A stretch of 64,000 nt of DNA from Phoronis australis (Eukaryota; Animalia; Phoronida), in NCBI GenBank assembly GCA_002633005.1, contig NMRA01000512.1, positions 128,540-192,539 on the forward strand. Direction: 5' to 3'. The position numbers were made by a program, and so were the translations under genes. Numbering within the stretch: the stretch's first letter is position 1; the number at the start of each line of letters is the position of its first letter. This document shows positions 19,463 through 58,210 of this stretch, in pieces. The notes beneath the pieces were generated by a model that made no database searches, was not told the DNA's origin, and saw only the letters and a list, made by a program, of their open reading frames with translations.

Positions 19463-20783
19463 AGACAGTGTCGTGCCTCTCGGGTAGTGCACTACCCTTT
19501 GAGACGGTAATGTAGTATGTCTGAAGCTTTTTGTAAATAACAAGTCTTCCTAGCTTAACCACTAAAGTCACATTGCCATGACTACCCTTCGAGCCTCTGG
19601 GCCCTCGGGACACTTTTGGAAGTTCTCAACATCTTAAAAGCCTTCCAGTTGGACAAATCTTCAACAATCAAAAGGTCCTGTCGTTCACCAACAAAATTGT
19701 TGCCCTGCATAGTGGCGATACTGGTGGTCAAGTATCGAACACTAAAAAGACACGATCGCCAAGATTACTAGCGTCGAGTGTTGGCAATCTTGGCAGTCAA
19801 GGCACGCAACCCTGATATGATTGTAATGTGTTCTTGCAATACTATAGACATGCACCCTGCTGCTCATGATTTCACTGAGAAATGAATGGACATTTTGGAA
19901 GAAGTTTTGGTTGCTGGCAGGAGTATTTGTTGAAGTTGGAAGAATTTAATGATGTTGACTGCCTCCAAATGTGTCGCTTTATGCTTGAAAAGTGTTTATA
20001 ACGACACGGCTGGCGATTTAGCCAGTACGAGGCATAATTGGATAAAAATATTTAAGTAAACAACTGATGAGGACTTTGAGCTGCTTGGCATTGTTCAGTA
20101 ACCAGTCAAGTGAGACTTGAACATGACTTTCAAACCATCTTGTGTTACAGCATTAACAGTGATTCTAACTATGACAGTGGTTTATATTTGGGATATTTTA
20201 ATGAATGGGGGATTTTGAGATCAAAATATTTGTTTGTTGTCGAAAAATGTGAGGATTTTGTGGGTGTCCATGGTGATGAAATTAGGGTATTTGAAATTTT
20301 CTTGTTCTGTCAGACATTATGTCTGCATTATAACTCTTTTTAAACTGGACTATCACAGCTGAGTAGCGCATTGTGTCTTTTGAAGCAATTCAACAAGGAG
20401 AACAAAAATACAAGTGGTTTGTAAGCCATTACCTTTTAAGGAGCACTCGGATTTCATTGGTAGTGATTTTGAATTATTTTTTTATGCAGTGTATTTTCTT
20501 AGTCACCAAGGCTTTCAGACAAACGTTGTTGAAAAGTTGACCGAGTAAAGTCACTATACTGGGGCCACTGCACTTGATTCTGTAAGCATTGGAAATACTA
20601 GCCATCAAAGTCCCTGTGTGAAACAATGTCTCAAGTCTTCATTTTTGTCAACAGATGTCACCTTTGTTCAAAGGAAAAATGTTCTTATCATGCTTCCCCT
20701 TTTCTCCTACAACCTCACCATGTCACAAACTCGACCATCCACCAGGGTCCTGTACCCATACCTATATCTCCCACAGGCTCACC

Positions 20784-22711: not shown

Positions 22712-22743
<32 letters not shown>

Positions 22744-28313: not shown

Positions 28314-31300
28314 TCAATTTTCGCCAATGACTGGCAGGTCCAGCTCAGCTGAACACTGGTCCATGAGCTGTTTAAGATCTTTGTACAGGCTGTGTGTGAT
28401 CCCATGTGTGACACGAAGTACAGCTTCACTCTGCAATTCAAAGTATGGGGTAAACTATAGCTATGATTCTTCACCATAAAACAAAACATAGCAGACATTT
28501 AGTGGAATTTCATTCCAATAAATTTCAAAACAAAATGTCACTTTTTACTTCATGGTTTGTAAAATAGCATGTCAGTGGAACAAGCCTTCCTCCTCATCTG
28601 CCAATCATTTTCCTGCCACGCTCCTTTCCCCACCCATACCCAATACCCATTCAACACCAACAATGGTCAACCTATCCAAAAGTCCCGCTACTTAGACTGA
28701 GATTATTGACATGGATTTCAATGCCAAAGAAAGTGTGGCAATTACTATAAAAGATGAACTTGAATTTTAAAGCCATGGCTTAGCACAACAAAAGCATCAA
28801 CACGAGCAAAGCACAGCGTAGAAATGCACCCACAACTCCATCGCATGTGGTATGATTCTAGTGTTTATCAGTAAGATAAAAATTCCACTAGATGGCATAC
28901 AATATGTCGAACCCATATGAATAGTGAATGGGACGGCATCTCAGTCTCCCAAATAGAAATCGGATAAATTTCACGAATTTACTTCAGCAAACTCCAAAAA
29001 TACACAGGCAAACATAAAAATTCAAATTGCCACTAGGAGGTGCATAGGTATGAATCCATCCAACTGTTTTCAAGCTAATAGGAACAGACATGCCAAGGTC
29101 CCCAAAGATCCTGCAAGGTGCTCAGGAGTTATACAGCATGCTGAATATGCAAAAATGCCACTAGGGGGCACACAGTAGTTGAACCCCTTCCAAGAATATA
29201 CATCAGTCATGTAAATAGGAACACATGAACTCAGAATCCTCTTAGTGGTAGAGGCGAACAGCAAGCATCAGCTCAAAAATAATTAAAATGGCCGATAGTT
29301 GGCACAGAATTAGTTGAATCCGTCCCAAAATGCAATGGCGCTGCCATCTCCAAATTTTATACAAATTCGTCAAGGAACTCTGCAGATACCAACAGACAAA
29401 CGTAAAAAATAAAATTTCCAATAGGGGGCACACCGGAAGTCGGATCGGTACAAAAAAGGCACAAGAAATGCGGATAAACCCCATTGTTAACAGGTACAAG
29501 CTCCAAACTGAATGACTGATTGCAGAAAATCTCATCATCCACATCTGAAGGAAGCAGAAACAACGTTAAGTGTACTTTGCTGAGATTCTAATTATCTCCA
29601 CGTTTCAGTGAGCTGATGAACTGACCTCTTTAAAAGACTGAGCAGCACTCTTTAGTTTCTGGAGGTAGAGTTGAAGTTTACCAATCTTCATCAGTTGTAT
29701 CCCAATGTGTGGATGACAGTCAGATGGGTAGAGTCGCCTGAAGACAAAAGAGACACCCATAACAACCCATAGAATACACTGAACCTAACTAAAATACTGT
29801 ATCTATGACAAATTTTCATTTTTTCACTAACTGCCAACATTATTTTATTGCATTTTCAAAGCTTGTTACAAATACTCCATTTCACCAACAATTTTTCAAG
29901 TTTGAGACGGATCTAGTGTGAGTAAAGCCAAAGATATCAGCAGAATTTTTGTTGAAACATTTGGCAAAAAATAGCTCAGTTTCTCTTCACATCGGATGCT
30001 TAACAGGTGAAGAAATATTGTGGGTCACTCATACAAAGTCAATCGTAAAAAGCTTCATGTGCACAAGATTCCACAGTCCTGCCACAGGGGGGCGCTTCCA
30101 CGATCATGCTCTAAACAGCATTTACGAAGACATGACAATGATTACTTTTCTAACTCCTATAAACCCACAGCAGATTTTAATAATTTTGTTAACGAATGCA
30201 TCTAGAGCAGATTCACTTAGCTTTAACCGGCCCCCTGTTATTAAGACTACGCACTTTTATGAAAACGATTTATAATTGTTACTTTAATTAGAAGTTATTC
30301 TGAACTTGGAAAGAATTGACAATTCGTTATTGCTTGAAACCAGACTCCATATGCATTGGCGGATCCAGGGGGTCAAGGGGATCAGGATACCCTTTCTCTC
30401 TTGATTTTAGCTATGAAATGCAGATTAAAGCCACCTTAAAACATCCCGACACTCATAACAAATCATCATCATCAGCTATGATAGCTCAATCAACACTTAC
30501 GCAACGTCATGGAAATGTCAAAATATTATTGGTAATTTAAAACAAGAAACTAGAAACTTTCTGATTTAAAATTTCACCTATTTTTGATAAAGATAGATTT
30601 CATCAACTTTCTTCTGAAGATGTCTTTACGTGACAGATCATTGTATGCTGTGAATTTCTAGTTAAAACAAATTGTTGAGGCTAAGACTGAGTAAAAAATA
30701 ATTCAGACTCATGCAACTGACGCAACTGACATTCAATTATTACAATGAAACACGACAGACGAGTGCATTTCTTTTTTAATCAAAATACATTTGATTTCCC
30801 TTGGGTAAAAACCATCACCTCTAAGAAGATAACTTTTCAACACATTTGATCAAAGTGTAAAATAACATAAAAAACTCACTTCTCCAGAAACTGTAAACAA
30901 TATCCATGAGAAAGAGAAATGCTAAATAACATGTAATTTTCACCTGTTGGCATTTCAGGGAAACCATTTTCTGTATTCAGTATCATGCTAAATCAAAACT
31001 GGTAAGAAAATGTTGCCATCAGGAATAACAACAGGACATGTTTTACTGAAAATAGTTTCAATGTCACAACACTAAATTTGGCAATCTAGAGACCTCAGGG
31101 CTTGGAATGGCTAATGACAAAATAGAGGAAAATTTTCCAGGTGATGGATCGCTCCGCAAATGTGTGCTTGAGTGACAGAAATATTTATGTGTGGTAAAAT
31201 TTAACTGAAAAAAATGTTTTTGCATGAACAAAATATTGATGAAAAGAGACGAAAAAAGAGGAAACTAGAAATCAAATAAGTGGAAATCGAAACCAAAAAA

Positions 31301-34300
31301 GAGAAAATCCTCTTAAAGCAGGAAGATTCCATTAGCCCTGAGATCTGTGGTTCCATTCCCAGTAGGGGTTCCTGATTTTTCTGTTTTTATTACTAAATTC
31401 AAGCGTCACTAACTTGTAGGGTTCCACGGTCTTCAGTCCATGTAATAACGCTTCATCCCACATCTGTAGATCTATACAAGCATCAAACACTTTGTCTAAC
31501 GTTCTCACTCTAAGCACGTTCATATCATGTAGAATGTCTTGCTCCGCCAGCAGGTCTTTACTCATGGATAGGATCTCATCTGCACCTGTACACAAACATA
31601 ATAATAAAAATAACGTACAAAGATTGTTAATGCAGAGAATGGATTCGTGTTTGATAGCCACAATTCATCATATCTCAAAATTTTCATAAAGTCACAGCTT
31701 TTGGCCCTTTTTGCATGTACAAGACGTATCAACTTTTGCTTGCTTCACTCATGCATGACAAACAATCTTTGTCAGTGATAACGACAAATTTTACTATTCA
31801 TGAAAAAAGTAATCACCACTTGATGCAACATAAAATAAATGTATATCCAACAAAACTGTCAGAATAAATATTGATTAAGTAATTAGTAAGAATAGATCCA
31901 TTTTAAGTTGCCCAAAATTTGTGCATAAATTATGTACTTCTAAATCATGGGGTCAAACTTGTTGACATGTACTTTAACGTCAAAATCTATTTTCAAATGG
32001 TGTTTACAACTTTGGGTTCTAGGGTCAAAGTACTCTCGAGATTCTAGAAAATTCTGAGAACAAACTGTAACAGCCAATGATAAAAAGATATTCAGATGCG
32101 CAATAGTAGTTAAAGCATAAAGACTTGCTACAGTGTACAGATGAAATTGTACGACAGAGCCATCTCGTGGAAGATTCTAGAAAGGATCTTAGCAAGGGCA
32201 AGGGTAAATGAACAGGAAGTTAACTAAGAGCTTGTCACTTGCATCGTGGGTAGTAAGATACTACCTGAAGTGTTGCGTAACCAGCCATAGACTGTAACCA
32301 GCAAGAATCGTGTGTAGAAGAAATTGCCTGCAAGTGTTGCATCACCAGAGACGGTGACCAGCAAGTACACAGTCGCTATACAGTGCGTGTAGTTCAAAGA
32401 TTCATCAACAGGACAATCATACAACAAGTGGAAAGTCCTAGCTTGGATAGCAGATAAGACATTTGATTATTTTGGTTGATTGATTGAAGTAATCTTTAAA
32501 GAGGGCGCTATCATAGTTACTCTTCTTTGTAGTTGATTACTTAAGTAACAACAGGTTCCACTTGTCTAATTAGGGCTTATCATATAATAAATTAGTTACA
32601 GACAAAAAATCTTCTTTAGCAAGTATGCTATTGGTGGTATTCTTTTTATTAATGACCTACTTGATGAAAATAACAGGTTTTACTCATTTACTGAATTTAA
32701 AAAGATCTCGAATATATCTACACACCTTTTGGAATATTGCTCTCTGATTGAGTGTATTAGGTCATTCCTGAGGAGAACACCATTAAAAACGCAGTTAATT
32801 AAGATACATGGACCAATAATACCTTTTAATATCCGTAATTTTTTAAACTGCGCGTCAATATGTAAAATGGTATATGGAATTGTTTGCCAAAACAAAATTT
32901 TGCCAATTGCCCAAAAAAGATTTCAAGAAAAATGTTACAACTTTCGAAGTGATGACTGGAAAAAATTTGTCTTTTAAAACTATACTTATGATTTCAAGTT
33001 ATGTACACTACAGTTTAAACTATTACATAGAATAATTACAACGAACTCTTTTCTTAAAAAAGTTAACTTGGTGGACTCTGACGTATGTACTTTCTGCCAT
33101 TCACAAAGTGAAACAGCAGATCACATACTTTTCGAATGCAATAATATAAAAATATTGATAGAAGAATTAAGCAGTTGGATGTTGTTGGTAAAATGTATAA
33201 ATATGGTGATTGACAAAAAACTATGATTTTTGGCATGCTCATAAGTAATGAAAATAAAGTTTTAAATTGGATACTTTTGCAATCAAAACATTTTATTTAC
33301 GTAATTATCTAGGTGTAAAAAAATAATCCCCAGTTTTTGTCATTTCGTTAAGATATTAGAAAGAGAATTTTATATTCAAAGAAGAATTTCATTAATGGTA
33401 ATTTAGATGAATACCATACAACCTGGAGAAACCTGTTAGCCATAACTTTTGCATGACATCCTACTAAAAGTGGGTGGGTATGTTGAGGGGGGCGGGTGCG
33501 TGTGAGTGTGTGTGCGTGTGTGCATGTTAAGAGTGAGAATGGGTTGGGTTTTTTTCTCTTACATGTCTTTGTAATGCCGTTTTGTGTAATAATAAAAAAG
33601 TTGACGATGACTGTACTAGACTCTACTGGCGTAAGAGTACTGGGCATCAACTGGGACACCCAAGCAGACAGCATTAATCTAGTGAACCATGACCTTGATT
33701 TCTGACCACTGTAACACATGCAGTATTGCCAGAACAGCAGCTAAGGGCTTCTTAAGAGCTTCTTCTTGGACTGTGTTAGCCCAGTGACCTTTGTGCCAAA
33801 TTATTCATTGAAAAACTATGGGCTGGAAAGTGTGAGTGGGCTGAACCCCTATGAGGTACATTACATAATACCCCTGTCCAGTACCTTAGATAACAACCTT
33901 GCCCAGGACATTGCATAACCAGTGAGATTGCAGCAGATCTTCCCAGGCAATATTTTCCTGGTAACCCTTGTGTGAACAATGTCAACCAACATGTATTCTG
34001 TGACGCTGGTGCCAAGGCATTCAGCACTGTGGCCTATCTACCAGTCGCTCTAGGATTTCATCAAGCAAGAATAGTTGTGTCTAAGTGCAGAGCATCACAC
34101 CGCGAGTGTAACCATACATTACCACATTACAACAGCTATTGGAAGCTTTAATTGGTTCACGCCTACTTCAATATACTGATCCTCATTAGCAAATGTAATC
34201 TGTGAGTGGACAGTGTCTTTCTGTGGACAGCCAGTGTCTTTCTGTGGACAGCCAGTGTCTTTCTGTGGACAGCCAGTGTCTTTCTGTGGACAGCCAGTGT

Positions 34301-37300
34301 CTTTCTGTGGACAGCCAGTGTCTTTCTGTGGACAGCCAGACTATATAACTGGCAACTGTAGTCTAAGAAAAACTGCCTGTATTTGTTCGCAGCCATGTAA
34401 CTGAAATTCACGCCCTGAAAGCCCGCGCCAAATAAATGTAATGTCCACAAAATAGTAACCTAGCAGATCTTCTAACCAGGGGCGTTGTGTTTAAGACAAT
34501 TGAGCGGCCCCCTAATGGCGTCCCATAGTTCCCATTCAACAATGGCCACCCCAGTCGCTACCCAGATGTATTACCAGCAGTAAATCACAATAGCAACCAA
34601 GACCCCATGCCTGACAACCAGCCCAGTGGCAACAAAATCATGGAGAATGAAGGGTACTCCACCCTCCGTCGATTGTTTCGTGTCATCACATGGATAAACA
34701 GGTTTCCAAGCCGGTGCAAAAACCCAACCTCAGCCGTTTCAGATGCTTTAACTGCACAAGGGCCAAATTCTGTGAAACGTCAGTGGATTTTGACTACACA
34801 ACATTAGATCTAACACAGAACATCAAACACATCATACAGCCCAGAAACAAAATCCTGTGGTGCCACCTATCAGTTATAACGATTTGTTAAATCACTGTAG
34901 TTTAGTCTCATTTTTGTCAATATACCAACATCAAGTGTCTGCTTCAATATAGTATTTTATTCGATTATAATTGTGTGTTTCCGATTCCTACAATCCCACT
35001 TCAGTTGAAGTTATTTCTTCAAGATGGCCAATTACTCAACCTAGGAAGAATTCATAACGCCAATCTACAAACCACAAGAAGTTTCCCATCCTGTCACCAT
35101 GCGCCCACAGGTTCACATAAGTGGTCATCAGAGATGCACACGTCACTTGTGTCAACATGACCATCACATACTTACGTCAGCACTACTGGATTCCGAGAAT
35201 CCGACAAGGCATTAACGCTGTCATTCGATTGCGTGTATCGTGTCGCAGAGTGGCTGGCCAACCGTATTCACAACCAGCCACGCCCCCACTGCCTGCTGAC
35301 CATGTGCCAGATGGACACCTTTTAATGAGATCTCTCAGGTAATGATAACACTGGCCATCTGTTCATCAAGTACCCATCAGACAATAACAACACAGTTTTT
35401 GATGTGTGATTACTCCTGTTGGTGTCTGACTTTACTTTGACATCCTTTATCCGAGCCTTTTGTCAGCCATTTGTCGCTTTGCAAGCCGACACTCCATGAT
35501 ACCAGATGTTATGATTTCTGACAATGCCACCAATTTTGTTGGGGTTCCAGCAGATGTTATTAGTTTTTTAATTCATATTCAACATTTCTTCACAGTTCAA
35601 CAGGTTACGAGGAAATTCATTCTGTGCTGCACACCACGGCTCCGTGTTTTTTTGGAGCGTCTCATCGGAATTACTCACCCTTGCTCAATAAGATTCTCAG
35701 TCGATCGCAGGTGACATTTAACCAAAACCACGTACAAATCTCACAGAATGCGAGTGTATTCAAAATGATCGCACCCTCGCATTTGTGTCTGGCTATGACG
35801 AGGAATTCCCAAACCATTCACTCCATAACCGCGACATAACCATATTTGACCCTCTGCTAAAATTTGGTCTCAATCTGGCAGAACCAACCATCCTGTAATC
35901 TACCCGCTCGAAACAATTGTCGACTGCGTTCAAGATCCTCCACCACCACAACAGGCAGCTCTCCAGGCTTGTGGCAATATACAGCGTTGGACAAATGACT
36001 GATTTGAATACAATATTTAGATTTTCATAATATGCACATTTTTTACATGTTTATAACTTATAACTCTCATGTCCATTATTCTTACGCATAACTCAATTTC
36101 TAATTAGTTCTAGTATTATACTGTTCATTTATTGAGTACTCCTTATTTTTAACAGACATTTCTTGAGCCAGTTTTGTGAACAGCAACTACTTGTTTTTTT
36201 AATTCGCCTACTTTTACGCATAATGTGTTGCTGTATTTAAGTCTCATTTTAATTGTAGTCATCACATTAAATAACTTTCATTTGTTGTCTACTCCTATCT
36301 TATCAAACTGGATTTATTTAGAAATTCTTCCTGTTCCTAGAACTGTTTGTGAACATTGTTATCCCTTACACATATGTCTAATTGGTTGACTTGTAGCCTT
36401 GTTCAGTTCTTTTCCAGGGCACTCTGTTTCATGGCCTGCAGGTTGTTACAAAAGAACCAGAAAACCTCAGCCTCGCTGGTTCTATCCGTTCAAACGAACC
36501 ACCTTTAAGCACGTAGTCGAACGGCATTTGCCCCTCTGCCACAACAGCATTATATGCATACGGTCATACATAGTGGTGGTCAAGTAGTCAAGTCACAGAA
36601 CTACATATATCACATAGTAGTGGTCAAGTCACAGAACTACATATATCACATAGTAGTGGTCAAGTAGTCAAGTCACAGAACTACATATATCCCATAGTAG
36701 TGGTCAAGTCACAGTCATATATAATAGTATAGTGGTGCTACTGTAAAACGCCACCTATTGGACACAAAATGACCTACAAGTGAAATCTGATTTCATCCTT
36801 ATTCCATAAAACATAATTATATAGTACAAATTAAATTGAATGTTATTCCACGTTGATATTTGGTTCCAAAACTACCATCAGTTTTGACAAAATGTAGGCA
36901 TCTACGGCAATGTTAGAGGCCCTTGAAAATGAAAATAAGGCATTTTGGGGGGCTACTTTTAACCTAAATTGATGATATTTCACAGAAGTATAGGGGTGGA
37001 TTATTACATTTCGAGCACCTGTGACTCACATTCAGGCAATACTTAAAGAAGCGATATGACACCGCCAGTGTCAGTAACTTAACTGATGGCTTTCTAAGTC
37101 AACAAAAAGATTTATCACAATGTCAACACGACTTTGTTGGTGCAATCGCAAACCAATAACCGAGCTATACAGAAAAACCGCACTCAACCAACACAGCGCG
37201 TTGCATTTCAACTCACTCGAATCATTTCTTTTCTTTGACGCCTCAATCTTATTCAACGTCTTCATAGAATAGTCAATCACTTTGTTTCTCTTCAGCTTAT

Positions 37301-37354
37301 AGTCTTCCTCGAATTGATCGAATCCACAATCTTCGCAAGGCTGCAAGTCTGCAC
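28314..37354 (-). CDS. SMYD3: SET and MYND domain lysine methyltransferase SMYD3-like, C-terminal exons only
   Basis: Exons 37217-37354, 31414-31585 (..LDKVFDACIDLQMWDEALLHGLKTVEPYK), 29626-29737 (RLYPSDCHPHIGIQLMKIGKLQLYL), 28314-28430 (SEAVLRVTHGITHSLYKDL..TGA). In phase; resembles SMYD3 HPVRGVQVMKVGKLQL / IMRVTHGREHSL. Confidence 0.88.
32600..33600 (+). mobile_element. 5'-truncated decayed non-LTR retrotransposon (L1/Tx1-like 3' end)
   Basis: Remnant zinc-knuckle CTFCHSQSETADHILFEC near 33086-33140, frameshifts, AT-rich, ends in AATAATAAAAAA at ~33590. Confidence 0.65.
33610..35950 (+). mobile_element. decayed BEL/Pao LTR retrotransposon pol (RT/RNase H/integrase remnants)
   Basis: Fragments RVLGINWD, HVFCDAGAKAFSTVAYL, NLADLLTRG, YLRQHYWIPRIRQ, ISDNATNF, FLERLIG with many stops and frameshifts. 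Confidence 0.85.
34206..34339. repeat. 21-bp tandem repeat x6 within BEL remnant
   Basis: Unit CAGTGTCTTTCTGTGGACAGC. Confidence 0.9.
36566..36715. repeat. 36/44-bp alternating tandem repeat
   Basis: Units CATATATCACATAGTAGTGGTCAAG(TAGTCAAG)TCACAGAACTA. Confidence 0.8.
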
Positions 37355-40300
37355 CTGAAACAAGATAATTGAAATCACTAATTGATGTAACTATTTTGTT
37401 GTTGACTTGAGGCTGTAACACATGTGTACAAACACACACATGATAAAGAAGATGTTGCATTTTCCTTACGGCTACTAAAGAAATCAATACACCTTCAAAG
37501 GGAAACCAACACCTGTTTGATAGTTCAAAAAATGACACGGAGGTACAATCGCAAACAATAAGTGATATCAAACCAAACTATACCTTCGAGACTGAATGAC
37601 TATGAAAAGTTTGGGCCGTAACAAGAACTGTGTTTTAAGGTTATGTAAGGCCAAATAAAAATGTCCAAATTTGGCCAACTTCGGGACAAAGTATCTCAGA
37701 AATGGCTGATCGTATTCATATGAAACCTTCGGATAGTGTGCTTAATATGCACTGTTCTCTACACCTGTTAGAAGTTGTTTTTAAAACCTTCCATTTTCAG
37801 CATGAGGGGCCAGAAAAAAAGGACTTATTTAGTTTTCATGACAAAAAAAAATTAAAAGTTGCATAAAACGAAAATGAAATCATTTAGAAATCATTGTCTA
37901 ACAGCAATGTGTAAGATTTCATCTTGAACATTTATAAAAAAATGTTATTCATACTCTGTCTATTGTTTTGCTGTCAACGCACCTTTCATTCTTTTGTTAA
38001 TTTTTTACTAAAAAACCCAATCAATGGCAGACTGGTGAAAAATCAAAATCCCATTACACAGGGTTTGTGCTTTCAGTAAATATTACACATCCTGAGTTAA
38101 GACCTACAGTTTAATGTAGATACTTCACTAAATACAGAGGTCCTTGGCACAACTTTAACTTGCACACTAATTCCTTATCTCTGTGGTTACTTGGACAAAT
38201 TAGTTAAAAACACAGCATATATCCATGATGTGAATATGAAGTATGTTGAAAATTGTCTTTAAGAACGAGTTTTGCATCAAAAATGATCCATCATAAATCA
38301 CTCAACTGTGTCAAGTAAGTATTGGGACGTGGTGTTGAGGAATAACACTGCATGATACGGGTTATATGAGCCCCCAACGTGCACCATTATTGCAAATTAA
38401 AGTAAAGTAACTTAGAGAATTTTTTGTTTTCACATTTACAAGTTTTGAATGAATAGGACTGCACTTTGTTTAGTGTAGATGATGTTAAAATAGCATTGTC
38501 ATTTGGTTCCTGATGTACATTAGCATAGTTAGGAGCATGCAAATACATCTTTGAAATGATACCAAATGCAGTTTAAACTATTAAAAGATACTAAAAACGA
38601 CTTTCGAATTCACTTTTCTGAAATAAAGTATTGTAACCCTCGACAACCCTCAAAGGTTTGGATCAAAATTTGAAAACTTCGCACAAAGTCAGTTAAACGG
38701 ACAAGTGTGACCTACGCTTTAGGTGAGTTAACAACTGTAGGGACAGACCACGCACCGAGAACCATAATAACCAATTTAGATGAGGGAGAAAGTATGAGTT
38801 TTTTTGGTTGAATCCTGCTTTTACCACTCAAGTTTGATGCGTTAGCAGGTGACAGAATGAGGACTGATTGAAATCGCCAGAACAAATCCTTTTAATAATT
38901 TCCTTCTTTTTTCCAATTAGCAACACAACATACTGCATACAGTACAGGTGAAACAATATTGGAGCATCTCATTAACCAAAGTCATGAACTCTCATTATGC
39001 TATGCTCAGCCTATAATGACAGAATAATTGGTTTCTGCTGAGGAAAACATTACTATTAAATAAAGTACATCTTGTTATCCACTGTTGTCAGGATAGCTTG
39101 ATGAAACACTGTAATTCTGAGAAGGGGTTCTCCAGTATGTTTTAGATAGGAAGCTGTAGCTAATAATAAGATACCCCATCACTCAGAGAGTGGGCTCCGA
39201 ACAAGGATATATTTAATGACTTTCAAAGAGCTTCTACGAGAAACTCACCCTTTGCCGTGAGTTGTTGAAGAGATACCAACCTTTTATCTACAGCAGGAGT
39301 TATTATCAATTAGGCATATAGCCCTTTGTCCTGCTGTGAAGATTCTTCGACATTTGACTTTTAAATCAAGACAAAAACAGAATAGGAAGAGCTATCATGA
39401 GAAAATAAGAACGCCATTTACAGTAAAGATAAAATAGAGATAACATTGAAAACCCTTCTGTAGATTTGTGCCGCATTTTGAACTCCAAAGGAAACCCTTC
39501 TGTAGGAAACCGTCAGAAAGGATGCACTTTCATAGGAAAACTTGTCGTGATGATGTCACCCCAATGTTTACAAAAAACATTCTGAAATTCTGCTATTGTA
39601 CAACAAAATTAATTTTTTCTGTATGGATGTCAAGAACTCAACCCAGATGAAAATGTGGTTTTATTCGAAATAGTATCAAAATTTCTTTATAATATTAAAT
39701 CTCTTTGTGTGAGTGGATAGAATTGTATACATGTGTATGAAAATAATTATTTACATTGATTTCGTAATCATATGTCATTGTAATCTTAACATCAGTTTTT
39801 TAATTGATGCATTGGTGTTTAGTAAATGTATATAGATTTCTTTGTATTTATTTAACCCAGATATAATGCCTCTTTCTGGGTTATGTATATTCATTGTATT
39901 GAAGATTTCCTTATAAACATTAAAAAAAAAATATTCTGAGGCTCACGTCCGTTATACCTCTTCTGTGGCAGTGCCCTGCTTGTAATCAAGGGAGAGAAAG
40001 TCAGAGTACATCACTGTGTTATGGGTATGACTTCTCTACTAAAGACTGTAAAACTGTGGAAACAGATGTCAAGGTTTAATGGAGACAGAACCACTAAAAG
40101 TTACACTGTTAAAGGTCAAACAAGATGGAAACTTTTGAAACCTTATACATAAAGAGAACAGTGACAGTGCTTGGTCAGCTGATAGGAAGTTCGTCCATTT
40201 CCAAGTGATGTTTTGATGTACCCCTTCCTGGTAGTTCTGAAGGACAAACGACGGGGAAGCTCCGTGTGCGCACATCGCTACCATTGTACAAGCAATATAA

Positions 40301-47341: not shown

Positions 47342-50300
47342 ATGGTCTTAACGCTAGTATGGGTCACATGTCTAGCTTCCATTCTACTCACCGCCAATGC
47401 CCAGTCAGCAGTATCCAGTAACATGGGGGTTATCCCCCGCGGTGTCTGCCCCACTCTCAAGGCTCTCTCCTGGGATTACCCTCCCTACACAAGATTATAC
47501 CTGGATGGCAAGTTCAACCTTCAACACAGCATCATGCACATCGTTCTGTCCAAGATCATCAACAAGTGTTGCCTTAGCAACACAACTCTAGAGCAACATT
47601 TCACCTCGTTGCCCGGCAACGAAATGGAAGCTACATTGACAGAGAACATCACATTCGCATTTCCAGTCAGTCGCAACATGGACAGGCTAACAGCTAGTGA
47701 GAAGATTCCTGAGCAATCCTTCATACCTATCATTATCTCCCCTGGTAAGTCGTTATCTCCCCTGGTAAGTCGTTATCTCCCCTGGTAAGTCTAGCACAAT
47801 GCCTACCGCACAATTAGTACATTATTCATGTTCATTATAACAGCTATATAATACAACATAATTTCTCATAAGGAACCTTTGTAATGCAAGTCCATTTGAA
47901 TATCAAGCCATGTCCTATAAAGAATGACCACTTTAACAATGAATTTGGCTTCTACACAGCCGTCATGAAGGGAACTCCACATCGAGTTTGTTAGTATTTT
48001 TGTTCTGTACTACAGACAGTACATTGACAGTCAAGATGCCAGACATTTGGATTATCCTAATAGATTGTTGTTTGGAATACCCAACACTTTCAAAATCACC
48101 GACTTATGTTTCAGAATACAGCAGCTAAAACCGATCTTAAAAACGTTGAATGCCGTGACATTCTGAGCCACTATGGTTAAAGCTTTCATTAAGAAAGTTC
48201 AAGGAAACAATTGCAAAAATACTGTTGTTTTATAATAGAAGACAATGCCTGTCATGCATTACACAAAGCATAATCGGTCATTATGAGAAGGCATTTAGGA
48301 TGTTTGAGTCAGAAAGCCACTAAGCCTCTTAAAGACATAATCCAAAGGTTTAACATTAAAATATTAATATTTGGAAGATGTTGTACAATAGGTGAATGTG
48401 TTTTGATCAGTGTGATAGCTGATGTGTTATGCCTTCTACAGATGTTCTTAACTTTTGTGATGACATCACTCACAGACAGCTAACCCAAGCAAACACTGTG
48501 AGGTGAAGTGTTAGAGTGAGAGCCCTCTGTTGGTGTCTGGGGGGCCAATGGAGAACATGTTACAAGGTGGAAACTCTTCCTCCACTTCAACTTGCAATTG
48601 GTTCTTGCTTCATTAAAAATTATTTCTCACAAGCTGCAGCTCTTTTTTCATGTTCCAGGGCTCGTTCCAAGAACACTAGCTTAGCTAATACAAATCTTAA
48701 ATTTCGTTACAAATTTTTTATTTCATTGAGTATTTAATTTTGTTAATTTTGTTAATTTTTGTACAGCCGTACACTACAAACTTTGGAAACAAGGAAGTTA
48801 AGTTTTCTTCCTGATTACTTTAGTTTAACATTTTGATAAAATAAATTATAACAGTTACAACGCATTGAGTGCTAAATTGACAATTGTATTGTACACCAAG
48901 TTCATGTTTACACATTATCAAACACAGGCAAGTTGTGCCTTCTGTCAGACATGAAAGGAATTGTGGTTTATGAGAAAAGAATTAAGTTCATGGTAACTAA
49001 ATTAGTATTGGTGACAAAAGAACTACATAGCATCAGAAAACAACTACTTTTAGACCAGAAAACAAGACTCGATGACAACTGACCAGTCAGGTCATGCAAG
49101 AGGAACATTGCGTTAGCAAATGCCCCCATCTGTTATATGGGAATATTGTGACTTTTTAATTCTTTGTCTGAAAATGATGTCAGAACCTATAGTCTCATAT
49201 TTGGAAATATATGTCATTATATTGTGTGGATGACTGAACTGAATCAACTTCTGTTACCATTTCAAACATTCTGAGCATTGACACTTATCAGTCAAGAGAC
49301 GCCTTGGAGCAGGCCTGTGCCTTTAATGTGAGCATCTACAATCATCAAGACAGCCTTCTAGTGAATAATTTAAGCATTTTCTCAACTTAATGATGAAAGA
49401 TTAATATCAAACAAATCATGCGTGATTGATCACCTTGGATGCCTTGAGTACTAATCCTAACCACAAGTTAACGTTACTGAGGATCCTAGAAAAATTCTAA
49501 TTTTGAAATATCAGATCTCAGAAATGGCTCGTCAGGTCCACATGAAACTCTCAGATACTGTTTTATGCACTGTTTATGCATGAGGAGCTATCAAAAAATA
49601 GGACTGAAAATTTTTGTGAAATGAAACAAGACTTTACAAAAATAATTATAAGTGTTTTGAGATTTAACCTTGAGCATCTACTGTGTATCAAATGAAATTT
49701 GATCATTTTAGATATTGTTATTTTGCTATAAATGTACCTTTGTTTTTCGCTAATTTTTTACAAAAAACTTATGGTCACATGACCAAGTTAATTAAAGCTA
49801 GGTAGACAGCTAAAAATCAAAATCTTGAGGCTTTCAACTTCAACAAAATACATACTTACAGAGTCGTAGTTATTTTGTTAATTGCACAGATTAGTTGATA
49901 AGGTCGTACAAAACTGTGACATCATGAGGAAGTGGAGACCTTTGCCGGCATCTCTTTAAAATAATTCAAACAATAAATGGAGTTATTTTTTTAACCACTT
50001 CTGTTGTATTATTAGAAAACTGACCTTTTCACAAATATGCACCAACGAAAATGTAAACGTTAAGTTAATTAAATGGTGTGAATTTGAGTGTGAATGAGTG
50101 TATGAAAGTCCTCCCCCTTCCCATTTCAATCCCCCTTTTTTAATAATCTCGGCTAATTATCCGCCCAATCATTAGGAATAATTTTCCAGATATTTATTTG
50201 TTCTTTTAGTATAACGTATTGTCCTCTAGTATGTTGTAAAGATATATAGTTGGTTCCACCCAACCCCAGCCATACCTACTAATCACTAATGATATGCTTT

Positions 50301-53300
50301 CTGGGTAAATTAACATATTGAAAAAGAAAATAAATGAGGAAGTTGCCTTCCCAATTTAAGAAGGGATATTTGCTGGTTGATTTGAGGGAAGATTATTAGA
50401 AAACTAATCAGACGTAATGGCCACCGAGCAATAAGGGGATTATGAAATTTCAGACAGACGATCACATGGCAGACAGACGATCACGTGGCAAACGGACGAT
50501 CACGGCGCAGCTGTTGGGCAAGTGGTCTGAAATTGACTAAAGACACAAACTTATTTCTGAACAATAATTAAACCTCACTTGAGCAAAACGGCAAAGCGTT
50601 TGATAATATATACATAACTGCTAATTACTGGCATACTTTCTTCAAATTATTTCTAAACTGTAATGTGCCCCTAATTACTTAGCAACCATTGTTAAGCAAC
50701 TGTGACGTGGGAGCGTAAGATCAATTTCCTGTTTTCAGTCACTTTCATGAAAGAGACGGTGTCCACTGATGGCTGCCAAATGCTGTATTAGACCATTTGA
50801 ACTGTGCAGAGGTGCTGACGAATACAGTCTAGTCAGTGACAGCTGATTCATATGTATATATACGATTAGCACAGCTTTCACCTAAGTGATGTGAAGGGAT
50901 TTCATGTGCATCTGAGCAAAGCACTCACGCTCTGCTACCCAAAAACTGGACCAGCTCAATCCCAAGTTCATTGGCCTCATGCTAATTGGTCAGAGCCTGA
51001 TCATGTAACATGGATTACTATAGGCCCTCCCCCTGTATCATGTAACATGGATTACTATAGGCCCTCCCCTGTATCATGCAACATGGATTACTATTGGCCC
51101 TCCACCTGTATCATGTAACATGGATTACTATAGGACCCCCCTGTATCATATAACATGGATTACTATAGGCCCTCCCCTGTATCATGTAACATGGATTACT
51201 ATAGGCCCTCCCCCTGTATCATGTAACATGGATTACTATAGGCCCTCCCCCTGTATCACTCTACTTACCTACAATCAAGCTTTTCTTGAAAGGAATTTAA
51301 GATGTGAGGTTATTTGCAATAAACATGATTTGCTGCGAAATGTTCTGCTATAAATGGCACAATAAACAAAGTCTACTTCACTGCTAAAGTCAGATGCCTT
51401 GACGGCAATAATTGGCGACTCGTAATAAAATAGTAAAAACATTCTGTTTGATATTTATGGTCAAAGCTAATAACTTCAGAAAATCTATTCAATCCACAGA
51501 CGTTGTAAAAACAATCATGTTCCCTTGCTAACAACACCGACACGTATTTCAAGCTTGGTCATCAATGGCCATTTGGACTTCATTCAAACTTCAATTTAAA
51601 ATCAATAGTTTCTGCCTTTTCCTCGTCGAAACCATTCTATAAGTTTTGCATTGAATTACATACTTGTTGTTTACTGAACGAATCCTGATAGCAACCTAAG
51701 TGAAAAACTGGAATTCAAAGCAATATCGATAACTGTTGTTTAAACAAAGTTAGTCAGAACAATAGGAAAATAAGTAAGTGGATAAGGATTCCTATGACAA
51801 GCAATAATGAAAGTAAAATGCCTGGAGTCAATTTCGCTTAGAGGCAGGTTTCTCGAACCAAAGTGTTACAATTTTTGAAATTTTTAACTTCTATCAGAAT
51901 GTCAGGTTGTAAACAAGTTAGCATATGGACATTAAACTTGAAAAAGAGACAAATGAATAAAAATATCAATATGCCAAGACTTTAACTGTTGATGGAAACC
52001 ATTATCATTTTAGTTTGGTTCGTGTGACAACCAGGAAACCTGAGATTAGCTATAATCCAGACTTTTAATTAAATATTGTATTCACATGAATCTCTCCTTC
52101 CCAAATAAGTAGTTATGGGGAATACATTTTAATTCGAGTACTGGTAGTACACAAACTTTTGAGAAAGTAAGTATACCTTTTGTTGTAGCCCCAAATTTCC
52201 AAGGAATTAGGCAAATCAACATAATCTATGCATCCATATATTAAGTAGAAAAATCTTGATAATCAGGTGTATTTTACACATATCCTACAACGAAAAACAG
52301 TTTTAAGTCAAGACCACAATGGAACATTGTTTCAGAAAATGGCTTTAGTTTGTAAAGTTTAAAAACTATTCCATTCTATTTTATCAATAAACATGGAAAT
52401 GGTTCAATTACAAAGCTTGCCTCAAAAATTTAGTTGCCATGACCAACACCAATAGTCATTTACCAATGCAACAACTACCGTACATGAAAAAATGCCTGGT
52501 CGCTAAATGGTGGTAAAAGACACAAAATGGCCGACAAGTGATCATTATTTTTTCATTTTTTCATGTAAGATAGGCAACACCACATAATTGTTAAGATCTA
52601 TGCAATAGCTGAGTTCACCAGTACCAAACCCTGTAGTGTTGTAACTAACCGTTACCAGTCAAACCTTCAGTTAAAATCGTTTTAACGCCAACTAGGTTTT
52701 AATCGCTAGTGGTCAGTGATATTGTTTTCTGATTCACCCCAGATAGTGCCATGGCATGCCACTGTCTTCAATGAGATTTGACAGAAGCACCATTTACAGT
52801 TGTAGCTTTGACAACTGCCGTGTTCACAAAAAGTTATAAACCTCTCGCTAAACCACTCTCACAGCAGACTACAGTCACAACTTTTAAAACTGGTTTTAAA
52901 GTGTTTAAATCGAGAGTTAAAATATTTAATTTCAGGTTTTGTAAGTTATAACTGCGGTGTGAACAAGGTACATGTTGAAGAGAAATTGTAAACATTCACA
53001 ACATAATTAGTCCACGAAAATGAAAAATATCAAAATTTGTACTTAACTTATGAGATTTTATCATTATGTGCTCTTGTAGGAGCCATCTATATCAACTACC
53101 AGGCACCAGGGGGTTACATCCTGCAGATCTTCATGCAAATGTGGCCACTGTCCATTCTTCTCATAGTGGCTACAGGCTTCGCTGGGATCATTATCTGGGC
53201 ACTGGTGAGTACAGCCAGTGGGATTCCATATGCACAGCTACGGCATTCCATGTGCACAGCTACAGCATTCCATATGCACAGCTACAGCATTCCATATGCA

Positions 53301-56300
53301 CAGCTATGGCATCCCATGTGCACATCTATGGCATTCCATATGCATAGCTATGACATTCCATGTGTACAGCTACGGCATCCCATGTGCACATCTATGGCAT
53401 TCCATGTGCACATCTATGGCATTCCATGTGCACAGCTATGGCATTCCATGTGCACAGCTATGGCATTCCATGTGCACAGCTATGGCATTCCATGGGCACA
53501 GCTATGGTATTCCATGTGCACAGCTATAGCATTCCATGTGCACAGCTATGGCATTCCATGTGCACAGCTATGGCATTCCATGGGCACAGCTATGGTATTC
53601 CATATGCACAGCGATGGTACTTCATGTGCACAGCTACGGCATTCCATATGCGCATATGTCAACCTTTTTAGTCTTGCCATAGCATTTATTTGAAGAGCAT
53701 AACTAAGAGTAAGTAGCACTGGCCTACTAAAACCAGTCGCAGGTGACACACAAGAGATGCCCGTTGAGGCCACATTTTTAGAAATAGCCTACTTTTAGAG
53801 GCCGATAAATTTGAGAAATTTCAGCCATTTTGTCGAACCTATCACATTACACAGTTACCTATTGCTTATTGGTTTATCTCTAAAATTAGAGGGCAAAAAG
53901 AAACATTGTCCATAGTTCGTAACACAATGAATATAACACGACAAAAACAGTTAGTGGTACATTTTCAGGAATATTGAATAATGGAACCAAACAGCTCCCT
54001 GCCAGCTGAACAAAGCTACCATATGCTGTCACAATAGCAAGACCTTTCAGGGAATAAAACCTGAACATATTTTGAACATTGTAGGATTCGAGGACCAACA
54101 AGGACCAGTTCGAGCCTACATTTCTACGAGGCTTCTCCGATGGAATATGGTGGGCTTTTGTCTCCATGACAACTGTGGGGTAGGTAGTTTGACCAGTCAA
54201 GGGGCACTGTCACTCAAACATTAAGCAGACAGCTTTCAAAACCAATGAACAGCACAAAGCGTGTAAAGGCTGTGTTTATAGTTATACACAGGCATTTTTG
54301 TGTGATTATAATTGACCAAAAAATGTTTCATATAATGAACTCATATCAACCATTTTAGCCTGATAATCTTTCATTATCAGTGAAATATGTATAATACCAA
54401 CCAAAATGGAGGTGTACTACGATAACACGGCATGCTCAGTGCTCACACGAGTGTTTCTATTTTAACAGTTACGGCGATAAGACGCCACGGTCAGTGCTCG
54501 GAAGAGTGTTTGGCATCCTGTGGATACTCATCGGCATCTGCATTATAGCAGTGTTCCAGAGCAGTGTGACGACCGCCCTCAGCTTCATCCAACAGCCATT
54601 ACCTAACATTAATAACCACAGAGTGGCAGTGATTGCGGGCACAGAGGACTACATCCTGGCTCTTCGTGAGGGGGCCATTATCTTAGGTAGGAAACATCAC
54701 CGTGAGGGGGCCATTATCTTAGGTAGGAAACATCACCGTGAGGGGGCCATTATCTTAGGTAGGAAACATCACCGTGAGGGGGCCATTATCTTAGGTAGGA
54801 AACGTCACATTAGGATTAATGCCAACTAATTACACACTCCTAAATTTTACAAGCATGTGCCCTTTTCTGTTTGTTTGATGCGTGAAGTGAGAAAGAGATC
54901 GAAACCGAAAATGTTATTTAAGCCTAACATGAGCTTAGAATACAAATTTCAGTCCTTTAGAAAATGCATCTGCCCCCCCCNNNNNNNNNNNNNNNCCCCC
55001 CCCCCCCCCCAAACTAACAGTGCCACATGTAGTCTACTTAAAAGAAAAAATGCAGCTGCTTCAAAACTGGGTTTACGCATTTTAATAGTACATGCGACAC
55101 GATGCGAATGAAGTAATGAGTAGAAACGTTGATAAACAGAATTTGGGTTGGAATATTTTATGTTCAAATGTATAATACGCAGGAATAATTTTAGAAGAGC
55201 CTTCAGTAAGGCCTCTGCATTAAAGTACAGTTTCGATTAAGAGGAGCTCTTAACTTCGGTTTTGGATCAAAGTTAACACTGCGAGTTTACATCGGAGTAA
55301 GAAGATGGACTTAACAGCAAACTGTCGACATTTCGTTACAATGATACACCAGGGGTCACTGCATTTGTCAACAGCCCGCCATGACTAATTAATAAAATTA
55401 ACATATGACATTAATGTTTCGTTTAACATTTATTGATTTGGCAGTCTAAGCATTCTGTCTCAATTGAATGGAATATTTTTTGGATTCTATACTTTACCAA
55501 AAATCACTGAACATAGAATTTACGCAAAACGAGTACCCGACATACTGTTTTAGTTCTGGTCCAGTGATACTCAGTCTCTTGTTATAAACCCTGGTGAATT
55601 GCTGGTCTGAAAACCCTGAAGGTGACTGGAACGGTAACACAGTAAACCCTTCTTAACAACGAAGCTTTGACATTAGTGTAGTTAACTGCATCAGGGAAGG
55701 GGTGCTTTGAAGCAAAATTAATTTCTTTGATGCATTGTGATTGCTTAGCTCAAGCCAACAGGACCATTTGCAAGCAAAAAAAGACAAAAATTAACGTGGT
55801 CTCCTCCAATTCACCCATAGACTTGAGGCAGTGCAAGACAATTCACCCATGGATTTGAGGCAGTGCAAGTCAATTCACTCATAGACTTGAGACAGTGCAA
55901 GTCAATTCACTCATAGACTTGAGACAGTGCAAGTCAATTCACTCATAGACTTGAGGCAGTGCAAGTCAATTCACCCATTCCCAAGCTTGTTCTAAAATGA
56001 ACTCTGTATATGATACACAGTGATATCCTTGTTTTGGGTCAATGAATGAATGCTATTACACAGCTGGAAATGTTTTAGTGGAATCAATGTTTGAAACGAT
56101 TTTATGCATATCTATATGCATATTCTGACCGAAGTAACATATGTGTTCATCGAAAAAGCAAATTATAAAACCATTATAATCAGTACTTTTATGCCAACTC
56201 TAATTAGAATTACTCACATGCCCTAGTCTGTAGATGTCTAAAAGTGCATTTAAAATTCTGCGCTAATATGCTGACCCTGGAGGAAAAACTTGCTTCTAAA

Positions 56301-58210
56301 TTAAGCACTACACCACTGGATGTAGCCCGAGCCCTGTTCAAATAAGGGGTCTTATTAGTGATGATAGATATTATTGAACAAACATTAAATTAAGGTGTTG
56401 ATAGAGATTAGCACTAAGGCATTTTGCAATGCTTCCAATCCTGCGCTTCGAAACTGTTGTCCAAGTCAATCTCCTACAATTTTTTTGTCTTTTAACAATG
56501 AAATGACCATCACTTTCAATTAAGCTCGATAGCTATGATTAGCCTAGAGGCATGTCCAATCCCGGCTGGAGCAGAAATCAAAATCTGTGTGACTGAAGCC
56601 TCAGACCTCATGGAAATTAACAGGTTGTGGAAAGGGTTGATTGGTGCAATCACCTAAACTAGATAAGATTTCTATTTGGTTCATGGCGTCAACGGTTATT
56701 TGTACTGAAGACTATATCTGCCCTCATTGGTATGACTTCCCATAAAATTCACGGTAGAGAATGGTGTCTATACAAACTTTTAACTTTCAGAATGCGATGG
56801 AACGCCATGTCTCTACCAGAATCTCAATGAAAAGAAGGTATCGGGATTTGTGGTAGACTATTTCGTCGAGAGGCATGCTCGTCAGATGTCGGAGAACCCA
56901 AACACAGAGTTTGTGGCAGCGTATCGCATCCAGACAGCTGTAGCCCATGGTATCCTTGTGCAGGTGATGCTTTGTGACTATACGATGTAGAAATGTACAT
57001 TGACATAACTGATGTTTGCACGCGATGCGGAGATTTATGGCAGCAGGGCCAAGTCAAAAATCAAAACCAAAACTGCCAAATTCAGCTAAGTATTGTCTGT
57101 CCCACCAAATATAAAAAGGGACAAGCTGGTGACAATAGACATATTACTCAATATTATAGGCAAAGACAGGGACTTTTTCTCGTATTTAATGTTTGCCAAA
57201 CATGGCCCATTGAATAACAAGACTTAGTCAGATATGTATACTGTATACAGTTTTAATGTCTTTCTTTGAAAATGAAAAGAGTCTGCTGTCAATAAAAACA
57301 GTCCTTCGACAAAAATCTGTCAAAATTAATAACAAATCACACTTTAACAGTGTTGGAAATGCATGGCTATTTCTTTGTTCTCCAATATATCTATATCACA
57401 ATTTTCTAAATCAGTTTTATTTTTACCATTAATTGGATCATGTCACGTGACCATGCCTTTTTAAAAAAATTAGCAAACAAGAAAGAACATTGATATGAGA
57501 ATTTTATTTCATGTAAAATACAAATGTTAAAGGTGAAATTGTAAAAACACTGCAAGTTAATTTTCTAATTCATTTCACTTCCAAATTATGCAACTTAAAC
57601 AGTTTGTTTGTGAAATCATGAAAACGGAAAATTTTAAAAACAACTCATAGGCATTTTGAAGAACAGAGCATAATGTATAATATCGGAACGTTTCATAAGA
57701 ATCTGATCCACCACTCCTGAGATATGATGTTCTGAAGTTAGCCAAATATGGACAGTTTCCTAAGGTCCATCATAACCTTATCTGAAATGTTTTGTTTGTT
57801 CTCATCAGGGACTTCCTAGTGACCTTGTGTCCTGCCTGACCTACGAGGCCCAGAAGGAACGTGCCCAAGTTTACAAGTGGATGCATGCTCTCTCAACCTT
57901 CAGCACGGCACGCGACAAGTATTCCTCGCCAAAAGATGTAGCACAGGACATCATGTATCTAGATGAGCAATTGGTTATCATTTACTCCGTATGTACCGGC
58001 ATCCTCGGAGGTCTCATCGTCAGTTTGGTAATCTGGGACATGAAGTTCCGTGCCTATAGCAAGCGGCGTCGAGCCTCGCACCAATTGCAGAAGAAAAAGA
58101 GCATCTCAAAAGACGAAGTAGTCGACAAAATGGAAGGGGTGAACCACAAGGCCTACGACAACTTTGAAAGAAATGATTACAGCGGAAATGATGTACCTTC
58201 TAAGTTCTGA
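47342..58210 (+). CDS. GluR0-like putative ligand-gated K+-selective channel (signal peptide, PBP-like S1, M1-P-M3 with TTVGYGD, S2, extra TM), 471 aa
   Basis: Exons 47342-47744, 53080-53204, 54085-54179, 54469-54686, 56791-56963, 57809-58210 (1416 nt, all GT/AG, phases consistent). Motifs: MVLTLVWVTCLASILLTANA signal, WDYPPY, FAFPV, FIPIIISPG, M1 WPLSILLIVATGFAGIIIWAL, GIWWAFVSMTTVGYGDKTP, M3 ..IIAVFQSSVTTAL, VAVIAGTEDY, GFVVDY, last TM LVIIYSVCTGILGGLIVSLVIW. Confidence 0.88.
51000..51258. repeat. ~37-bp minisatellite x7
   Basis: Unit ATCATGTAACATGGATTACTATAGGCCCTCCCCCTGT. Confidence 0.9.
53221..53650. repeat. 22-bp minisatellite x~19 in channel intron 2
   Basis: Unit GGCATTCCATGTGCACAGCTAT; explains the spurious repetitive ORFs. 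Confidence 0.92.
54665..54808. repeat. 36-bp tandem repeat x4 duplicating the exon-4 donor
   Basis: Unit CGTGAGGGGGCCATTATCTTAG|GTAGGAAACATCAC. Confidence 0.92.
55808..55978. repeat. 32-bp minisatellite x~5
   Basis: Unit AATTCACTCATAGACTTGAGACAGTGCAAGTC. Confidence 0.9.

Follow-up and report, generated by a model that had tools for sequence, protein, structure and literature searches.

A Phoronis australis gene with a GluR0-like layout and an intact potassium-channel filter points to an unnamed family of predicted ligand-gated channels in animals

Up to now the link between potassium channels and glutamate receptors has consisted of bacterial GluR0, one rotifer protein found not to be K+-selective, and engineered chimeras. 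The rotifer protein, AvGluR1 of Adineta vaga, carries an amino-terminal domain (ATD). Our reference for GluR0 is Synechocystis slr1257 (PDB 1II5/1IIW) with its Nostoc counterpart (PDB 2PYY), within the 'Group 1' prokaryotic ionotropic glutamate receptors (iGluRs; PMC2950845). In the accessible part of that paper (Ger et al. 2010), a binding site combined with a K+ filter is stated to occur in bacteria only, and the available portion of a 2025 review (PMC12332018) names only GluR0 and AvGluR1 as links. Here we describe a plus-strand gene in a 64,000-nucleotide stretch of Phoronis australis DNA (contig NMRA01000512.1; hereafter the window, in whose numbering all positions are given). Its product shares with GluR0 and the Group 1 proteins a signal peptide, a K+ filter, the lack of an ATD and the order S1-M1-P-M3-S2, in which the two halves of a clamshell, S1 and S2, flank a pore. 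Judging from sequence, from modelled structure and by analogy, we think it on balance probable that the gene encodes a subunit of a tetrameric, extracellular-ligand-gated, K+-selective channel from an animal family, so far without a name, that is related to the GluR0 of bacteria.

The gene comprises six exons between 47342 and 58210, separated by five introns that are all GT-AG with compatible phases. Splicing of the window sequence yields a 471-residue product with no internal stops, its 1416-nt frame being open over all six exons. Hydropathy marks hydrophobic stretches at residues 1-20 (the signal peptide), ~146-179, 215-249 and 391-417, and WWAFVSMTTVGYGD lies between the second and third of these. 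The first-pass annotation of this DNA, which was made from the letters alone, had proposed just such a spliced open reading frame, and its signal peptide, helices and coordinates were recovered together with every motif named there (YPPY, FAFPV, FIPII-SPG, WWAFVSMTTVGYGD, FQSSVTTAL, VAVIAGT and GFVVD). We compared the product with a profile hidden Markov model (HMM) of 27 independent full-length relatives, which was built without the Phoronis protein. The spliced protein scored 325.7 bits and was colinear with profile positions 1-446 of 469, spanning all five junctions. Since every exon also outscored 200/200 shuffles, we conclude that the match to the family is not due to chance. Among 2165 six-frame segments of the whole window, the six exon-bearing frames were the six top scorers (92.6 to 17.7 bits; next 4.3).

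Each exon supplies a recognizable part of the predicted channel. Exon 1 (47342-47744; 30.2 bits against the family HMM) encodes the signal peptide (47342-47401) and the S1 clamshell half, with Cys36, YPPY, Cys76-Cys77, two N-glycosylation sequons, P108-x-S110...R115 and the FIPIISPG hinge as landmarks; within it, FAFPVSRNMDR (47654-47686) corresponds to the S1 ligand-pocket strand and loop, where S110 and R115 stand at the spacing of the bacterial P/A-x-T-x-T-x-x-R clamp. Exon 2 (53080-53204; 23.4 bits) contributes the hinge end, the pre-M1 segment and transmembrane helix M1 (WP...GIIIWAL), and exon 3 (54085-54179; 51.0 bits) the cytoplasmic loop, the pore helix and the start of the K+ filter (WWAFVSMTTVG). 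Exon 4 (54469-54686; 93.7 bits) completes the filter with YGD and continues through the M3 gate helix into the start of S2; by sequence and alignment, it carries FQS at 54554-54562, where the family has FTA, and VAVIAGT at 54623-54643. The S2 lobe with GFVVD is encoded by exon 5 (56791-56963; 16.8 bits), including the conserved acidic pocket residue D303 (56856-56858), and exon 6 (57809-58210; 25.1 bits) holds the end of S2 with Cys347, the last transmembrane helix (~57971-58039), the cytoplasmic tail and the stop codon. Searched with Pfam, these exons revealed the pore and nothing else (Ion_trans_2 at E 0.0094 in exon 3 and 31.7 bits in exon 4, where Lig_chan reached E 0.0043). A missing coding exon within an intron was ruled out, as none of 200 intronic segments exceeded 4.3 bits against the family HMM. 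An exon set of a K2P or Kv channel was likewise ruled out, given the single pore and flanks that match the family in order.

The fold was examined through a homologue, P0120, which is 28% identical to the Phoronis protein over 422 columns and was modelled from an alignment of 51 family sequences, none of them bacterial. The model (predicted local distance difference test, pLDDT, 87.5; predicted TM score 0.73) forms a split clamshell. When it was searched against 48,161 PDB representatives, the best matches were the GluR0 ligand cores 1iiw (Z 21.0, root-mean-square deviation (rmsd) 2.8, 213 aligned) and 2pyy (Z 20.3, rmsd 2.7, 204 aligned). These were followed by bacterial solute-binding proteins (Z at most 19.4), AvGluR1 (4io2; Z 18.2, rmsd 3.1, 222 aligned), ctenophore and plant domains (17.3) and NMDA receptors (17.1). 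A second structure comparison gave a similar order, with GluR0 at Z 21.2 (rmsd 2.7, 212 aligned) and AvGluR1 at up to 18.6. For the whole P0120 chain, the 34 rows that Foldseek listed consisted entirely of chains from AMPA or NMDA receptors, with TM 0.36-0.45 and a best E of 2.9e-13. A model of the window's own exon 1 (pLDDT 81) matched type II periplasmic-binding-protein (PBP-II) folds in 49 of 50 listed entries, as classed by reading, with the alignments on the first half.

Profile comparisons agree with the clamshell assignment. Using HHalign, with profiles that include the Phoronis protein, the family S1 matched bacterial GluR0-like S1 at 92.4% and S2 matched S2 at 97.8%, in contrast to 0.3% for an S1-against-S2 control. 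The 36 matches to a profile of S2 from six loci included bacterial binding proteins, the best at E 1.2e-7, as well as GluR0 at E 0.14; no eukaryotic iGluR was among them. Single exons were less informative against the PDB, exons 1 and 5 giving no match and exon 6 chance helix matches only. At E <= 0.1, Pfam Lig_chan was detected in 27/27 family members, Lig_chan-Glu_bd in 0/27 and SBP_bac_3 in 0/27. The layout of the iGluR superfamily, in which an M1-P-M3 pore divides a PBP-II clamshell into S1 and S2, is seen in the homologue model and the profiles, exon 1's own model being weak taken alone. The GluR0-type arrangement around a predicted inverted K+ pore that had been proposed for this gene is supported by these matches, and nothing pointed to a non-bilobed fold or a cytosolic N-terminus. 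In modelled structure and profiles taken together, the clamshell is nearer to the GluR0 and solute-binding proteins of bacteria than it is to the iGluR domains of animals.

The pore resembles that of a potassium channel throughout. Residue conservation was counted in 77 bacterial proteins and 31 relatives, 15 of the latter with a named animal source. The Phoronis protein and 29/31 relatives carry TTVGYGD unaltered; WW, TTVGYGD, P, GR and W hardly vary either in the family or in GluR0-like bacteria. Like the two-helix K+ pores of KcsA, NaK2K and Lmo2059 (Ion_trans_2), the protein has a pore helix, TTVGYGD and an inner helix; it differs from them in its predicted inverted orientation, in the clamshell halves that flank the pore and in having a single pore per chain. 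Nor does it resemble canonical K+ channels (Kv, Kir, K2P and KCa), as it contains no T1, voltage-sensor, RCK, Kir or second pore domain. The first-pass annotation had called the channel potentially K+-selective; the intact filter stands, but the filter does not settle selectivity, because AvGluR1 carries TXVGYG and nevertheless passes Na+ according to the accessible part of PMC3483616. That rotifer protein, which also shares with the family a C-terminal helix that GluR0 lacks, makes it conceivable that the architecture and ligand gating are as we propose and the pore is a poorly selective, excitatory cation channel. We consider this quite improbable, as the pore module as a whole is K+-channel-like, with 59 K+-channel chains, one solute-binding protein and no iGluR among the 60 best PDB matches listed for the family profile, as its key residues are those of GluR0-like bacteria, and as GluR0 itself is K+-selective in the available portion of PMC12332018.

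Several features predict that this pore is inverted. The signal peptide, the N80 and N102 sequons for N-glycosylation, the conserved cysteines and the extracellular modules fused to some relatives point to extracellular S1 and S2 segments, with the N-terminus outside as had been supposed. The cysteines in question, 36, 76, 77 and 347 of the Phoronis protein, are kept in 26, 29, 21 and 23 of the 31 relatives, respectively, and are not among the commonest bacterial residues at the same columns; they may form two disulfides within lobe 1. The fused modules are EGF repeats or CUB+Ig domains, which lie ahead of S1 in three relatives (L081:1138-1440, L084:250-936 and protein P0032) and occupy the place of the iGluR ATD. 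In the Phoronis protein, S1 begins ~20 residues past the signal peptide, which leaves it without an ATD, as first described. The inverted orientation of GluR0 was shown experimentally with PhoA fusions, according to the accessible part of PMC13099474, and the available text of PMC12332018 describes a working glutamate-gated chimera in which a signal peptide inverts a K+ pore.

Unlike GluR0, the window gene is an intron-containing animal gene whose product has four conserved cysteines, a C-terminal helix (~391-417) and a cytoplasmic tail; the bacterial chain ends after S2, and a helix at that place was found in 0/80 bacterial loci. Two of those bacterial loci (L019 and L066) have a longer N-terminal part and an extra helix. 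The gene had also been described as bearing an M4 helix. A helix does sit at the M4 place, although a profile of the last helix (seven sequences) retrieved no iGluR at E <= 10 and thus gave no sequence match to iGluR M4. With metazoan iGluRs the protein shares the S1-M1-P-M3-S2-M4 order, the whole-chain Foldseek matches to GluA/GluN ligand-binding and transmembrane domains, and Pfam Lig_chan. Most insect-type ionotropic receptors (IRs) lack an ATD; IRs derive from non-NMDA iGluRs and have a pore without the K+ filter. The Phoronis protein differs in its full K+ filter and K+-channel-like pore, and an IR cluster came only 18th in the Atlas list (0.90).

With AvGluR1 (PDB 4IO2 series) the protein has in common an animal source, a clamshell combined with a TXVGYG filter, a C-terminal helix and a ligand-binding-domain match at Z 18.2-18.6. 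It differs in that AvGluR1 has the full eukaryotic iGluR architecture (accessible part of PMC12332018) and is Na+-permeable (accessible part of PMC3483616), whereas the family lacks the ATD and spans at least three phyla. The segment FQSSVTTAL had been placed at the position of the iGluR motif SYTANLAAF; the region is correct, but the alignment register falls one residue earlier, at VFQSSVTTA (residues 236-244), with 0/9 identities. Identities to SYTANLAAF were at most 3/9 in 31/31 relatives, below the 4/9 or more that, in the accessible part of PMC6307864, is the entry criterion of an iGluR survey. In failing this criterion, and in having a full K+ filter and no LIVBP-like ATD, the family differs from the metazoan AKDF, NMDA, Epsilon and Lambda iGluRs. 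By the features tested, the gene lies outside GluR0, AvGluR1 and every named animal iGluR subfamily, and yet likely works like GluR0.

We also considered which ligand the clamshell might bind. The S1 arginine, which we take to be the holder of the amino-acid carboxylate in GluR0 and iGluRs, is present in 65/77 bacterial proteins and in the Phoronis protein (R115). The S2 acidic residue, D303 here, is D or E in 27/31 family members and 72/77 bacterial proteins, and the S2 Ser/Thr at the T266 position is kept in 21/31 relatives. Because S110, R115, T266 and D303 all stand at bacterial amino-acid clamp positions, amino acids would be the first ligand class to test for this protein. Most relatives, which lack the arginine, probably bind other solutes, and this suggests a family of chemosensory or modulatory receptors that has diversified. 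Ligand gating had been part of the first proposal, and of this the clamshell fold is supported, whereas gating by ligand is not, the family having lost the canonical carboxylate arginine. The same erosion of the pocket, with the arginine in 1/31 relatives and S/T at P+4 in 6/31 as against 66/77 bacteria, could mean that the protein is an inverted K+ channel in which the clamshell has ceased to bind small organic ligands. Such a channel might be a leak or might have its activity tuned by ions, by pH or by cell contact; this particular copy might instead serve a heteromer as a silent or modifying subunit. The EGF and CUB+Ig fusions, which suggest adhesion-linked regulation in some members, the substitution of FQS for FTA in M3 and the many paralogues per anthozoan genome, which allow heteromers, fit this alternative. 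We regard it as unlikely though not far-fetched, as the family retains both lobes along with the S2 pocket residues, the model aligns with closed clamshells of the ligand type over at least 200 residues, and a pocket that varies while its scaffold is conserved would be equally expected of diversified ligands.

The family to which the gene belongs appears broad among invertebrates. A HMMER protein search with exon 4 returned 393 matches at E <= 0.001; the listing gave 150 of them, and 30 were looked up individually. Many of those listed are proteins of 440-600 residues with the same layout and 25-33% identity to the spliced model over most of their length. The named relatives come from cnidarians (Nematostella, with at least eight distinct gene entries, Exaiptasia, Stylophora and Oculina), hemichordates (Saccoglossus, Ptychodera and Glandiceps) and an annelid (Owenia), and are labelled only 'uncharacterized', 'predicted' or 'potassium channel domain', the last label being explained by the two-helix K+ pore module. 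The family is thus unnamed and poorly characterized, as had been suspected. In the Atlas, the top three clusters for the Owenia member have 85, 76 and 154 members, are 99-100% eukaryotic, most commonly cnidarian, and bear automatic names only. Six of 80 metagenome loci proved to be further, intronless family members (217-415 bits against the family profile, compared with at most 165 for the rest). Less sensitive searches gave little: word-indexed searches among longer proteins found 0/249 candidates with exon 1 and 0/49 with exon 4, and an alignment search gave 14 matches from 7994 candidates scored, which reflects the sensitivity limits of these methods, as full HMMER finds 393. Exon 1 alone gave no usable match in the Atlas. 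From the named members, we infer that the family is older than the cnidarian-bilaterian split and that it expanded in anthozoans.

To place the family relative to bacteria, we used the best 80 of ~8900 pattern-matching stretches, and the family profile retrieved 534 of 600 scanned stretches. By that estimate of ~8900 stretches, GluR0-like genes that keep the K+ filter intact are very widespread in bacteria, well above the 12 of a 2010 list. A quick LG+G4 tree, unrooted, was made from 32 family rows and 39 of the 77 bacterial rows, with no eukaryotic iGluRs among them. In it, family and bacterial sequences fell on opposite sides of one branch (SH-aLRT 100), and the Phoronis protein was not nested among bacterial GluR0-like sequences. 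It grouped within nine rows with annelid and hemichordate proteins (support 88, below the starred level) on a long terminal branch of 1.06. The first-pass annotation had seen in the family an intermediate, with K+ channels on one side and iGluRs on the other. A lineage of its own, derived from bacteria, would suit the data just as well, because the clamshell is nearer to bacterial GluR0, the last helix has no sequence match to M4 and the tree is one of family and bacterial rows. Contamination by bacterial DNA was ruled out by the spliceosomal introns, the RPL7A and MED22 neighbours and the placement with animal proteins.

RNA evidence was sought in three raw runs with the same species label (X1, X2 and X3), of which ~18-19% each was examined, an intron joint being listed only at three or more reads. 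In run X1, nine reads lie on exon 1, all in one direction and at least 95% alike, and this direction is the one expected for plus-strand RNA in the usual stranded library. One of them stops at 47744, the predicted exon 1 donor (depth 0.24 x 29 = 7 nt), and then departs from the genome; 47744 is the first and sole in-frame donor of exon 1, and it is the one used by the single informative read. Same-direction depth in X1 was 0.14 for the exon 3 bin, 1.02 for exon 4 and 0.37 for exon 5, and among the indexed RNA runs none was listed as containing exon 6. The RNA supports expression and one donor, and transcript support is thin. Of the predicted junctions, reads bear out this one donor and no complete junction, and the exon junctions rest on homology rather than on reads. 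Same-direction RNA also covers 48173-48563 within intron 1 (depth 0.61, run X1 only), where a weak acceptor at 48442 yields frame-shifting candidate exons only; this RNA is possibly a non-productive exon or unspliced RNA. Depth near 57717 and beyond 58304 was set aside as repeat-derived, as it lies on both strands with many loose ends.

Several observations weigh against the view that this gene encodes a working ligand-gated K+ channel subunit. In the transcripts, the exon 2 bin had a depth of 0 in run X1, exon 1 was covered in only 1/3 runs, with nothing on it in X2 and X3, and no intron joint reached the three-read threshold in the portions examined. The full-length model is that of homologue P0120 rather than of the Phoronis protein, whose exon 1 model reached Z of only 4.5-6.4, a range that is uninformative alone. 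The carboxylate arginine is missing from 30/31 relatives, and R115 may be coincidental, as the loop after P108 is highly variable. The M3 gate helix reads FQS where 24/31 relatives have FTA, a change that could alter or abolish homomeric gating. For 16/31 relatives without a named source an animal origin is assumed, and the Na+ permeability of AvGluR1 despite its filter was noted above. Some of these points would also suit a real family in which this particular copy is decaying or mis-spliced and yields no functional protein: the gate motif is substituted, the terminal branch is long, the donors of exons 1 and 4 are duplicated with two of the copies shifting the frame, expression is low, and exon 2 lacks RNA while the intronic depth at 48173-48563 is unexplained. 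We find this very improbable, given an open frame over six exons with canonical splice sites and colinearity with the family, an intact filter, four cysteines and pocket residues, and exon-confined reads that use the first, in-frame donor of exon 1. 

The duplicated donors are part of a wider set of tandem repeats in the gene. A 36-bp unit, present four times at 54665-54808, copies the end of exon 4 with its donor and creates three further in-frame donors, each of which would add 12 residues to S2; the family alignment agrees with the first donor. A 20-bp unit, present three times at 47733-47791, copies the exon 1 donor, and its two extra donors are frame-shifting. Intronic minisatellites occupy 50996-51258 (37 bp x 7), 53211-53651 (22 bp x 20) and 55807-55978 (32 bp x 5), and the 22-bp array prolongs the exon 2 frame into a spurious 228-residue open reading frame. 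Elsewhere in the window, RPL7A-type exons (Pfam Ribosomal_L7Ae; 11876-14950, minus strand) lie head to head with MED22/SURF5 (Pfam Med22; ~20780-24169, plus strand). The vertebrate Surfeit locus shows this pairing. The window is an animal chromosome segment, with these exons upstream of the channel gene. Scattered exon-like frames at ~29300-37580 on the minus strand have a SET/MYND (SMYD-type) look by eye, and three of them gave no Pfam match at E 0.01.

We found no description of the family in the literature, including under six accessions, nor of animal cells being quieted by such a chemically gated K+ channel, in a search that mostly did not cover subscription journals. The accessible part of a eukaryote-wide iGluR phylogeny from 2025 (PMC12226733) lists no such clade. 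In the available supplements of PMC12226733 and PMC6307864, the filter motif and the accessions tried were not found, though alignment gaps or line breaks could hide the motif, and term searches of the accessible parts of PMC13648236 and PMC9989356 found nothing on the family. There is an unlikely but appreciable chance that it has already been described in print. That the family fails the SYTANLAAF cut-off and has no Pfam binding-domain match could explain why it was passed over, as it could go unseen under a binding-domain label and be filed under 'potassium channel domain'. This exposes a blind spot, since one major iGluR survey admits sequences by the very motif that the family lacks.

The analysis itself covers how the exons are arranged, that the gene belongs to the family, which motifs are conserved and how the homologue and exon 1 are predicted to fold; the working of the channel is drawn from knowledge of GluR0 and iGluRs. 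The signal peptide would place S1 outside and invert the pore, so that the filter faces the cytoplasm, and four subunits would build the pore. A small solute outside the cell would close the S1/S2 clamshell, which would pull on the M3-S2 linker and open the outer bundle crossing; K+ efflux would then hyperpolarize the cell.

If so, animals may have retained, since before the cnidarian-bilaterian split, a separate family of GluR0-type ligand-gated K+ channels that is distinct from the named iGluR subfamilies. Such a family would have expanded in sea anemones and corals with diversified pockets, would persist in annelids and hemichordates, and would give fast, direct K+ inhibition or chemosensing, hidden until now by its database labels. 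We advance this broader proposal tentatively, with a chance that falls a little short of even. A native animal family with the layout of GluR0, a K+ pore that is intact and numerous paralogues in Nematostella, a laboratory model, makes three questions directly testable: whether fast inhibition in animals can be carried by directly ligand-gated K+ channels, what makes a pore K+-selective when it is inverted, and whether the last helix and the layout of animal iGluRs had a single origin or two.

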